Shown in pieces: positions 26,162 through 27,897 of a stretch of 44,644 bases of DNA. The stretch lies in the IMG/VR virus record IMGVR_UViG_2568526230_000009; one strand, 5' to 3'. The position numbers were made by a program, and so were the translations under genes. The notes under the pieces were generated by a model. It saw only the letters and a list, made by a program, of their open reading frames with translations, was not told the DNA's origin and did no database searches. This DNA is from a virus (taxonomy: Duplodnaviria > Heunggongvirae > Uroviricota > Caudoviricetes). Each line of letters begins with the position of its first letter. Positions within the stretch are counted from its first letter, which is position 1.

Positions 26162-26395
26162 ATGGGTACGTTAGGCAACCAGCCGTGCAGAAGTCGTTAT
26201 GAGTTCGATGATTTTAATTTAGCCAATCGAGCTGCGGCTCTTACTAAGTTAGCAAAAGAAACTGGTGTATCGGTGGATACCTTAATCAAACTTGAAATTG
26301 CTATGCAACTGAATCGGCTCAACTCCATCCTTATCGAAAACGGTGACAAGATGGACGAGAATCTGGCAGGTATTGGCGAGATACTGCAGAAGTGA
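26162..26395 (+). CDS. Small HTH-like protein
   Basis: 77 aa; GAGGAA SD 5 nt upstream; LAKETGVSVDTLIKLEIA looks like a helix-turn-helix; hairpin follows the stop. Confidence 0.4.
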   Translation: MGTLGNQPCRSRYEFDDFNLANRAAALTKLAKETGVSVDTLIKLEIAMQLNRLNSILIENGDKMDENLAGIGEILQK

Positions 26396-26401
26396 GAGTA
26401 G

Positions 26402-26420
26402 CCCCTCTTCTGAGGGGTTG
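26402..26420 (+). terminator. Stem-loop after the 77-aa gene
   Basis: CCCCTC-TTCT-GAGGGG followed by TTG. Confidence 0.3.
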
Positions 26421-26793
26421 CACATTTAAAATATTAAGGGCGGTCTTCTTCACGTACACAGTCACCTGGTCGAATCGTTCACGCATACTGAGTACAAAAA
26501 ATCTCAACGATAAGATCAGGTTAGACCTGTATTTTCCAGAAACATATAGACGCCTAAAAAAACACTAAACTCATGATTATCATGTATGTTTTTACTGGAA
26601 ACATTGAACCATCCACAATACAGCGTAAAAAGCAAGCAATTCACAAGATTTTAAAGTGATTTATCTGGAAGACTTTACTACTAACAGTTAATATCGTACC
26701 AGAAGTGCAGAATTTGCACTTTTACAGGAATGTGGTACGGAACATGCTGTCTATATTTCAACCAATAATCGTAATGCAGTAACTGGAGGAGCT

Positions 26794-27282
26794 ATGGCTA
26801 CCAACCCAAGAGAGCACGCCCGGCGAGTGCTGGACACGTTCTGGTGCGGGCGTGGTTTCCCTGTTGATCCAGCGAAAATTGCTCACGACATGGGATTAGA
26901 TGTTTTTATTACCGATCTTCCTGGGAAAGTTTCTGGCGCACTGATTAAACAAAAAGATCAAGATCCAGCGATCTTTCTAAACAGTGATGACAACAAAGTT
27001 CGTCAACGTTTTTCATGTGGGCATGAGTTGGGGCATTACATCGCCCGGCAAGCATCGCATAGCGATGAATATGAGTACGTTGATTTACGTGGCGAAACCG
27101 CAAGCGCCGGAACGCATCCTGATGAAATTTTTGCAAACAAGTTCGCAGCAGAACTTCTGATGCCGGTAGATGAGGTCAGAAAACTGCACGCTGACGGTCA
27201 ACCAAGTTATATAATGGCGCATTATTTTGGCGTATCTGACGATGCGATGACTTATCGTTTAAAGAACTTGAGGTTGGGGTAA
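26794..27282 (+). CDS. ImmA/IrrE-family zinc metallopeptidase (COG2856-like)
   Basis: 162 aa with HEXXH motif (CGHELGHYI); GGAGGA SD upstream. Confidence 0.65.
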   Translation: MATNPREHARRVLDTFWCGRGFPVDPAKIAHDMGLDVFITDLPGKVSGALIKQKDQDPAIFLNSDDNKVRQRFSCGHELGHYIARQASHSDEYEYVDLRGETASAGTHPDEIFANKFAAELLMPVDEVRKLHADGQPSYIMAHYFGVSDDAMTYRLKNLRLG

Positions 27283-27291
27283 CGCTTTAAA

Positions 27292-27897
27292 ATGCCATCG
27301 GATGACGATTTTAACAGCCGTTTCAAACAGGAAGTAGCACGCAGACTGAAGGATTCCCTCAACCTACACCGTCAGTTAGCAGAAGAGGTTGAGCCGGAGG
27401 ACGATGAAACTCCGGTTCAGTCTCCTGACGAAGCTTCACCTCAGCCAAAGGTTTCGCACGCCCCCAAAAAAACGGCTGTCCGTATTCGCGGAATAGCCAG
27501 AAAAAGAGCTGCCGAAGCTCGCAAAATGGCTGTAGCTGCGTCTAGCAAAAGAATTCCAACTGCTACACCCTCTCAACAAGTCACCCGTACTGAGAGTAAA
27601 ATCTTGACCGAGTTCACATCTGTGAAACAGGTGAATTCACTTGATACCGAGCATGAGCGCAAACAACTCAACAACAAAGATTTTGAAGCAGAAATCGCTC
27701 TAAAAAAACGATACGGGAAATGGTTCCTGATTATCCTTGCTTTCCAACTTCTGATAATGAATGGTGTATTTATTGCCGACGGCGCAGGTAAGCTGGAATT
27801 TGAGGATTTAACACTACAGTTGTACATGGGCGGTACTTTGACAGAGGTATTCGGCCTCGTGCTGGTCGTGACAAAATACCTTTTTAAACGCAAGTAA
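27292..27897 (+). CDS. Membrane protein with charged N-terminal region and two C-terminal TM helices
   Basis: 201 aa, starts 9 nt after ImmA-like stop; 3-prime end is duplicated at 31233-31318. Confidence 0.5.
   Translation: MPSDDDFNSRFKQEVARRLKDSLNLHRQLAEEVEPEDDETPVQSPDEASPQPKVSHAPKKTAVRIRGIARKRAAEARKMAVAASSKRIPTATPSQQVTRTESKILTEFTSVKQVNSLDTEHERKQLNNKDFEAEIALKKRYGKWFLIILAFQLLIMNGVFIADGAGKLEFEDLTLQLYMGGTLTEVFGLVLVVTKYLFKRK
27811..27897 (+). repeat. Direct repeat copy 1 (3-prime end of membrane protein gene)
   Basis: About 92% identical to 31233-31318 by manual alignment. Confidence 0.8.

Follow-up and report, generated by a model that had tools for sequence, protein, structure and literature searches.

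A prophage-borne peptidase-membrane protein pair of Escherichia coli is probably an unannotated RosmerTA-type toxin-antitoxin module

In this work, we characterized a three-gene locus of a 44,644-nucleotide stretch of DNA (IMG/VR record IMGVR_UViG_2568526230_000009), referred to below as the window, which corresponds to an Escherichia coli prophage. The locus comprises a 77-aa gene, a gene for a 162-aa zinc metallopeptidase of the M78 (ImmA/IrrE) type and a gene for a 201-aa protein with two predicted transmembrane (TM) helices; these open reading frames (ORFs) are co-oriented on the plus strand and run opposite to the flanking phage operons on the minus strand, as described in an original prediction made from the sequence. 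Our results indicate that the protease and the TM protein probably constitute a two-gene toxin-antitoxin (TA) anti-phage module of the RosmerTA kind, which the prophage would carry as a moron expressed in the lysogen. From sequence comparison, the pair appears to be an unannotated Kita-type RosmerTA, corresponding to the NetFlax RmrA_D25/RmrT_D5 subtype, and not the novel three-gene system first proposed, since it belongs to a family already described. Four lines of evidence support this assignment directly, namely the linkage of the two genes, the homology of both parts to a validated system, the intact catalytic residues of the protease, and genetics of the kind expected for an antitoxin.

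The protease matches the Pfam family Peptidase_M78 (PF06114) with 64.9 bits against a cut-off of 22 (E = 7.7e-18), and its gene is preceded by a strong Shine-Dalgarno (SD) sequence, GGAGGA; both features had been anticipated. The HEXXH motif is formed by H77-E78-L-G-H81, with E111 as the third ligand, and residues H77, E78, H81 and E111 align with H96, E97, H100 and E129 of CapP, that is, with its zinc ligands and catalytic glutamate. Among 120 clade members, 119-120 keep these residues unchanged, which indicates that protease catalysis is under selection. The best PADLOC match of the protein is capP (2.4e-25), covering profile positions 3-151 of 242; since this match stops at position 151 and the protein is 162 residues long, a GAF domain is absent. 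Thus, the protein consists of the peptidase only, with neither a helix-turn-helix (HTH) nor a GAF domain detected in it, and the PADLOC RmrA models match it only in their peptidase segment, approximately positions 166-266 of 363 (best 5.8e-12). The closest solved structure by sequence is that of CapP (7t5t), and the position of the CapP cysteine-switch residue is occupied by a tyrosine. As a separate observation, residue C75 (27016-27018), located two residues before the HEXXH motif, is kept in 112 of the 120 clade members, including Kita RmrA, and corresponds to a glutamine in CapP.

The TM gene begins 9 nt after the stop codon of the protease. In the AlphaFold2 model, its product displays an N-terminal amphipathic helix (residues 4-32), a charged and disordered stretch of ~87 aa (residues 33-119; predicted local distance difference test, pLDDT, ~50), a juxtamembrane helix running into TM1 (residues 120-164, with TM1 within 128-164), a loop of 9 residues and TM2 (residues 174-199). 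The short intergenic distance, the disordered and charged N-terminal part, which follows the first helix, and the two C-terminal TM helices agree with the architecture originally read from the sequence. Across 132 diverse members of the family, conservation is high at L137 (95%), K138 (77%) and Y141 (89%), at Q152 (96%), L153 (95%), N157 (86%) and G164 (90%), and at T182 (92%), E185 (89%), L197 (99%) and F198 (98%); the conserved polar residues Q152, N157, T182 and E185 lie inside the TM helices, and L197-F198 are terminal. The disordered linker varies in length and is nearly missing in the short forms of the family (107-125 aa). A HMMER scan of 1.84 billion representatives recovered 685 members of this two-TM (2TM) family at E<=1e-3, with lengths of 49-236 aa among the best 150 of them. 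No Pfam, NCBIfam or PADLOC match was obtained for the 201-aa protein, and ten diverse members likewise showed no Pfam or PADLOC family above threshold. Searches of sequenced phages and plasmids for the TM gene gave no phage match, the single 'plasmid' match being a 4.9-Mb E. coli record, and a literature search by the RefSeq accessions of the locus proteins returned no paper.

Both genes travel together. A word-indexed search yielded 48 clusters of the 201-aa protein, of which all those named by organism belong to Enterobacterales, and an M78 gene (75-100% identical) was found directly upstream in 22/22 fetched loci with a complete TM gene. A search started from the protease recovered proteases of ~160 aa that form a second tier, with 45-62% identity, and in six of the seven independent loci of this tier a small gene lies immediately downstream of the protease gene, or overlaps it, and fits the 2TM profile at E=1e-27 to 1e-35. 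These six loci come from Pectobacterium and Silvimonas, in P4-like islands, from Endozoicomonas and Pseudoalteromonas, in chromosomal or insertion sequence (IS)-adjacent positions, from Salmonella, and from a metagenome-assembled genome in which the pair adjoins ParE/Phd. The arrangement of an M78 gene followed by a 2TM gene was also present in all six distant viral loci that could be scored, and in many relatives the two genes overlap, compared with the 9-nt gap in the window. The position of the cassette differs among elements: in Klebsiella and in a Rac-like E. coli prophage it lies between the attachment (att) tRNA and the integrase, and in Serratia between the antiterminator and the lysis genes. 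Among 5426 complete E. coli genomes, 431 (~8%) carry a prophage with the pair, and most of these are of sequence type 131 (ST131). Taken together, the protease and the TM gene are an obligate, mobile and tightly linked two-gene cassette.

According to the NetFlax study, RosmerTA systems combine an ImmA-type protease antitoxin with varied toxins, and the pair of the Gordonia phage Kita was validated, with RmrA listed as 'Peptidase_M78' and RmrT as 'Transmembrane' (Ernits et al., 2023, PMC10440598). Kita RmrT depolarises and permeabilises E. coli membranes, the Kita protease neutralises this toxin partially, and the pair protects against a few myoviruses of the BASEL collection (PMC10440598). 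The protease of the window displays 43% identity to Kita RmrA over 157 aa by BLASTP (E=1e-41); in a tblastn search of 50,697 phage records, Kita gp32 and its relatives were the best matches after an identical E. coli phage record (ON470624), with 44% identity over 93% of the length for gp32 (E=5e-31). The Kita gene next to the protease overlaps the protease stop codon and encodes a 119-aa product with two C-terminal TM helices. This protein, Kita RmrT, scored 45.2 bits (E=4e-13) against the 2TM profile built from the 132 diverse members, versus 8.4 bits for the best of 1000 shuffles and 3.7 bits for the reversed sequence, and it was aligned by hhalign with a narrow 2TM profile at E=8.9e-5 and a probability of 60%. 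Homology of both components to the Kita pair is in agreement with the claim that the protease and the membrane protein form a functional pair, for which a role against phages or in abortive infection is the best reading.

Comparison of the two systems revealed common traits as well as differences. Both are phage-borne, and both have an M78-only peptidase without HTH domain (178 aa in Kita RmrA_D25, YP_009301393, versus 162 aa here) and a small 2TM protein encoded directly downstream in the same gene order (RmrT_D5, YP_009301394), with the TM2 motif 'T-x-x-E-V-x-G-L' and a terminal 'LF'. They differ in their hosts, which are Actinobacteria for Kita and Enterobacterales here, and in the toxin, as the E. 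coli protein is extended by a conserved N-terminal helix and ~87 aa of disordered linker (201 versus 119 aa). Depolarisation and phage protection are features of Kita, and are predicted by analogy for the E. coli pair. In a PADLOC analysis of the Kita proteins, capP was the best match for the protease, the RmrA models matched partially, and the toxin had no match; because the validated pair gives the same pattern as ours, the capP match is not diagnostic, and the current models miss the Kita subtype. The assignment of the E. coli protease to CapP on the basis of its best PADLOC match was thus rejected, considering this shared pattern and the missing GAF domain.

Similarities extend to other TA systems. 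In canonical RosmerTA (Millman et al., 2022), a Zn-peptidase antitoxin is likewise accompanied by a toxin of variable type, the antitoxin is undeletable or essential, and the system is anti-phage. M78-only proteases related to ours in a P2 variant, in Pseudoalteromonas phage ACA1 and in mycobacteriophage Che9c are followed by unrelated membrane proteins, which fits the toxin swapping of RosmerTA. As a side observation, in these P2-like phages the partner membrane proteins, that of the P2 variant (NC_070905.1, 31040-32216; our locus L041) and that of ACA1 (277-1520; L042), share the C-terminal motif 'VAFILG-GLTL-LT--K', and each phage probably carries an additional RosmerTA-like pair in which the toxin has been exchanged. 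The membrane toxins of Panacea (PanA) systems, for instance PanT_D11, are also small proteins, cytoplasmic in their N-terminal region and TM at the C-terminus, which cause membrane depolarisation and are counteracted by a partner in the cytoplasm; however, their antitoxin domain is Panacea/DUF4065 and not an M78 peptidase.

Genetic evidence on the pair was obtained from the ST131 strain EC958, whose prophage encodes identical proteins (WP_000536919.1, WP_000224749.1, WP_001138663.1 and WP_000536231.1) at 2,068,495-2,071,391, with gene order and spacing that match those of the window exactly; the protease, WP_000224749.1, is the product of EC958_2158. [quoted passage not shown] Table S4 of the same study contains read-count rows for EC958_2156, 2157, 2159 and 2161, and none for 2158 or 2160 (PMC3789825). 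On account of these rows, EC958_2159 (TM gene) and EC958_2157 (77-aa gene) are considered insertion-tolerant and the protease gene is not. The protease gene has 45-47% GC, similar to its insertion-tolerant neighbours, and an AT-rich or H-NS cold spot is therefore an unlikely cause of the call. Disruptions of the locus were also found in nature, as an IS1 element is present in five complete genomes: AR_451 (L038, NZ_CP030337.1), S9, R10, R13 and AVS0193. In AR_451, the one inspected, IS1 truncates the TM gene at approximately codon 170, with loss of TM2 and an intact protease, and this strain is a natural knockout of the toxin. That the protease is essential and its partner dispensable is what would be expected of an antitoxin and its toxin, and the opposite of what is predicted for an anti-repressor, a CapP-like derepressor or the activator of a pro-toxin. 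The original suggestion that the protease switches a membrane effector on is contradicted by these data, which point to a protease that restrains the effector as an antitoxin does.

Based on these findings, a mechanism can be proposed, in which the C-terminal helical hairpin of the 201-aa protein would insert into the inner membrane and, if unrestrained, would depolarise or permeabilise it in the manner of the Kita homologue. The cytoplasmic M78 Zn-peptidase, made first from the common transcript, would keep the toxin harmless, most likely by catalysis, acting on the long cytoplasmic N-terminal tail that the toxin would expose. Upon infection by another phage, the restraint would fail through loss, inhibition or titration of the protease, and the freed toxin would collapse the membrane potential, so that the infection would be aborted, as suggested by the phage defence of the Kita pair. 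Neutralisation by proteolysis is consistent with the invariant catalytic residues and with the fact that AlphaFold finds no stable Kita complex. A more specific scheme, which we put forward only tentatively, is that of an enzymatic antitoxin that docks on the N-terminal helix and continuously clips the tail, without sequestration of the toxin, infection being sensed as a drop in protease activity; Q152 and N157 in TM1 and T182 and E185 in TM2 might then belong to an oligomeric ion pore, or to a dock for a host membrane machine, and not to a detergent-like lesion.

Several points weigh against the assignment to RosmerTA, or limit it. The essentiality in EC958 is a re-reading of published TraDIS data, where the call is statistical; it could reflect over-expression of the toxin from the outward promoter of the transposon, which would still imply a toxic TM protein. 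The relationship between the toxin and Kita RmrT is remote, as profile comparison alone detects it and tblastn gives no match, and the PADLOC RmrT models match neither the 201-aa protein nor 10 diverse relatives. Canonical RmrA is a protein of ~360-400 aa with an N-terminal XRE HTH domain and a C-terminal extension, and only the peptidase core is found here. For the Kita pair itself, AlphaFold failed to predict a complex and neutralisation was incomplete (PMC10440598). The very high conservation of polar residues in the TM helices would be unusual for a simple pore-forming toxin. Finally, toxicity, neutralisation, cleavage and phage protection are predicted properties of the exact E. coli pair.

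The alternative that survives best, in our view still improbable, is that the pair serves addiction only, as a selfish TA module stabilising its mobile element with no role in phage defence. The genetics of the locus would be the same, ParE/Phd and HicAB genes are neighbours of the pair in some loci, and defence against phages by the E. coli member is predicted from its homologues. However, protection against phages is provided by the Kita pair as well as by other RosmerTA systems, and the cassette is located in known cargo hotspots of prophages and satellites, beside other defence-like genes.

A protease-gated pro-toxin, in which the M78 enzyme, on a signal, would strip the N-terminal helix and the linker to generate a pore and abort infection, seems less probable again. 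The long disordered tail with its conserved N-terminal helix does resemble a removable inhibitory segment, and the catalytic residues are invariant. Nevertheless, this model predicts that loss of the protease is harmless, whereas in EC958 the protease is essential and the TM gene dispensable; the short members of the family (107-125 aa, and 119 aa in Kita) have almost no tail to remove; and the Kita protease lowers toxicity instead of causing it.

We consider it very unlikely that the protease is an anti-repressor of the ImmA/ImmR type (ICEBs1, phage phi105), cleaving the CI-like repressor (37300-37728) to induce the prophage, with the TM protein as an accessory, for instance in superinfection exclusion. 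ImmA, which is also encoded by a mobile element, is indeed a standalone M78 protease and has a similar size (~160-170 aa), the CI-like protein is an XRE protein with HTH_3 only, lacking an S24 autoprotease domain, no LexA box (CTGT-N8-ACAG) occurs anywhere in the window, and the ACA1 relative (gp1) is annotated as 'antirepressor'. Yet, the CI-like gene is not adjacent and lies 10 kb off, which is also the distance to the nearest XRE gene of the window, and none was found beside the pair in the other inspected loci. The obligate partner is a 2TM protein and not an HTH protein, the cassette moves among unrelated prophages, P4-like islands and non-phage chromosomal sites without a nearby repressor, and loss of an anti-repressor should be harmless, in contrast to the essential gene of EC958. 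The comparison initially drawn with repressor-cleavage circuits such as ImmA/ImmR or IrrE/DdrO, with an HTH partner, is not supported, as the pair lacks a linked HTH gene in every lineage.

A CapH/CapP-like switch, in which the 77-aa protein would repress at palindromes until a protease sensing single-stranded DNA (ssDNA) cleaves it and the membrane effector is induced, is the least credible of the alternatives, despite capP being the best PADLOC match, CapP 7t5t the closest structure and an operator-like palindrome lying upstream of the protease, because the GAF domain is absent and a tyrosine replaces the cysteine-switch residue, the 77-aa protein has no detectable HTH, is co-oriented and not divergent, is swapped in relatives and absent from other lineages, knockout of a derepressor should be harmless, and Kita RmrA also has capP as its best match. 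With CapP/CapH and IrrE/DdrO our pair shares the M78 peptidase fold and catalytic motif; unlike them, it lacks the cysteine switch and an adjacent, divergent HTH substrate gene, its partner is a membrane protein, and its protease knockout appears to be lethal. CapP, which with CapH regulates CBASS, combines its peptidase with a central HTH-like linker and a GAF domain at the C-terminus, and CapH is usually encoded divergently from the operon under its control. The role in damage sensing suggested at first has no evidence in its favour, as the GAF domain binds ssDNA in CapP and IrrE and the protease is peptidase-only.

The 77-aa gene is an unrelated neighbour and not a conserved part of the module. 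Its product had been taken as HTH-like; the sole Pfam match is to MerR and falls below threshold (E=0.13), the AlphaFold2 model is a two-helix hairpin (H17-34 and H38-76, mean pLDDT 82), and a fold search of the PDB with this protein gave nothing significant (all E>5). A spacer of 398 nt separates the gene from the protease and opens with a stem-loop 3' of the stop codon (26398-26421, 10 bp, -19 kcal/mol, z=-4.8). In two close relatives, a locus of E. whittamii (L011) and L018, the flanks are the same but enclose unrelated DNA in place of the gene and hairpin, and all other lineages with the pair lack the gene. Fifteen protein clusters resemble the 77-aa protein, those named by organism being all from E. 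coli. Within the complete E. coli genomes, the gene and the pair are found in 418 and 431 genomes, respectively, a co-occurrence attributable to clonal descent, since nearly all copies share >=99% identity and are largely from ST131. Homologues of the 77-aa protein down to 53% identity keep an invariant N-terminus, MGTLGNQ, and the core MQLNRLNSILIE. Therefore, of the three-gene operon proposed in the original prediction, the protease-TM unit stands and the 77-aa gene does not, with its spacer, stem-loop, replacement in L011 and L018 and absence elsewhere.

Regarding regulation, the 290 nt directly upstream of the protease are kept in L011, L018 and L019, including the loci in which other DNA has taken the place of the 77-aa gene, and this segment is the probable promoter or regulatory region of the pair in this type of prophage, judging from its conservation. 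In an alignment of four lineages, the region was not conserved in the Klebsiella, Serratia and Rac-like loci, the SD sequence and start codon being the only upstream sequence common to all (GGAGGAGCTATGGC); in two lineages, the upstream space holds the tRNA att site. No consensus sigma-70 site was found in the upstream region, and an Rfam scan of positions 25000-29500 gave no match. A palindrome is located 75 nt upstream of the protease gene, and a second one, which shares a 17-mer with it, lies at 25938-25954, before a 225-aa gene on the minus strand; the corresponding regions (25927-25967 and 26695-26730) read AACTGCACTATTTGCAC and AAGTGCAGAATTTGCAC. Both palindromes are conserved in L011, L018 and L019, and they are the only two sites in the window for a search pattern that was itself derived from them. 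By their sequence, they may represent a common operator. The 225-aa neighbour, considered as a possible regulator, had no Pfam, NCBIfam or PDB match. Coordinates of the locus features are compiled in Table 1.

Table 1. Features of the protease-TM locus and its surroundings, in window coordinates.
Feature	Coordinates	Strand	Basis or remark
77-aa gene, neighbouring swappable gene	26162..26395	+	Pfam, locus comparison, AlphaFold2, fold search
Lineage-specific upstream region of the pair (probable promoter/regulatory region)	26505..26793	+	Begins at weak hairpin 26517-26529
Palindrome AAGTGCA-GAATT-TGCACTT, possible operator	26703..26719	.	Repeat and inverted-repeat search
Shine-Dalgarno GGAGGA of the protease gene	26785..26790	+	Alignment of upstream regions, four lineages
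Putative rmrA-like antitoxin, standalone M78 (ImmA/IrrE-type) Zn-metallopeptidase, 162 aa	26794..27282	+	Pfam PF06114, PADLOC, Kita RmrA homology
Putative rmrT-like toxin/effector, 201 aa, predicted inner-membrane protein	27292..27897	+	AlphaFold2 model, family alignments, HMM
Orphan duplicate of TM gene 3' end and downstream flank	31238-31348	+	~110 nt, local alignment with 27816-27923

The prophage of the window displays a lambdoid organisation, with a Q antiterminator, DnaB, YdaT, cro-like and CI-like genes and an integrase, and it is integrated at tRNA-Leu/Cys/Gly, adjoining pgsA and uvrC. The three ORFs lie in cargo DNA, flanked by the replication genes on one side and by Q on the other, in a nin-like region. 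Beyond the TM gene, 3.3 kb containing a 232-aa gene and an LprI-domain gene separate its end from the orphan copy of its 3' end; this fragment stands alone in loci L025-L028 and L060-L063, and is probably the scar of a cargo insertion or exchange by recombination at the end of the gene, within this cargo hotspot.

Other genes of the region deserve mention on their own. The 232-aa neighbour (28360-29058, minus strand) is a homologue of ORF1 of the P2-EC58 Z-region, annotated 'putitive lysogenic protein', with ~90% nucleotide identity, and has a weak PADLOC match to RTasTM (1.8e-5). It corresponds to EC958_2160, the neighbouring gene also called essential by TraDIS, and its GC content is only ~32%; an H-NS cold spot may have caused this call as an artefact, or else the gene may be a second one of the immunity or antitoxin kind. 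Upstream, positions 23295-25052 hold an ISL3-family transposase gene (406 aa) and an adjoining DUF1706 gene (172 aa), which are missing from the otherwise matching prophage of SA186 (L001) and from EC958; they make up a ~1.9-kb insertion in the cargo region that is specific to the strain. An ORF6N-domain protein encoded at 31344-32180 could be a candidate anti-repressor.

The mechanism of RosmerTA, a validated defence family, is poorly understood, and with this work a so far unannotated E. coli member is placed in a prophage of the pandemic ST131 clone. The pair is a useful finding rather than a surprising one, its long-form toxin, with the extra N-terminal helix and disordered linker, differing from that of Kita. 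The Kita-type subtype appears to be much larger than catalogued, with 685 representatives of the toxin family that are missed by standard defence finders. As a probable antitoxin and toxin, the pair would also explain EC958_2158, a previously unexplained strain-specific 'essential' gene in a widely used ST131 TraDIS data set. Moreover, it offers a native and genetically tractable E. coli host, with E78 of the protease and Q152, N157, T182 and E185 of the toxin as candidate residues. Should the enzymatic-antitoxin scheme be true, RosmerTA-type systems would represent a class of TA neutralised by proteolysis and acting through a structured membrane effector.

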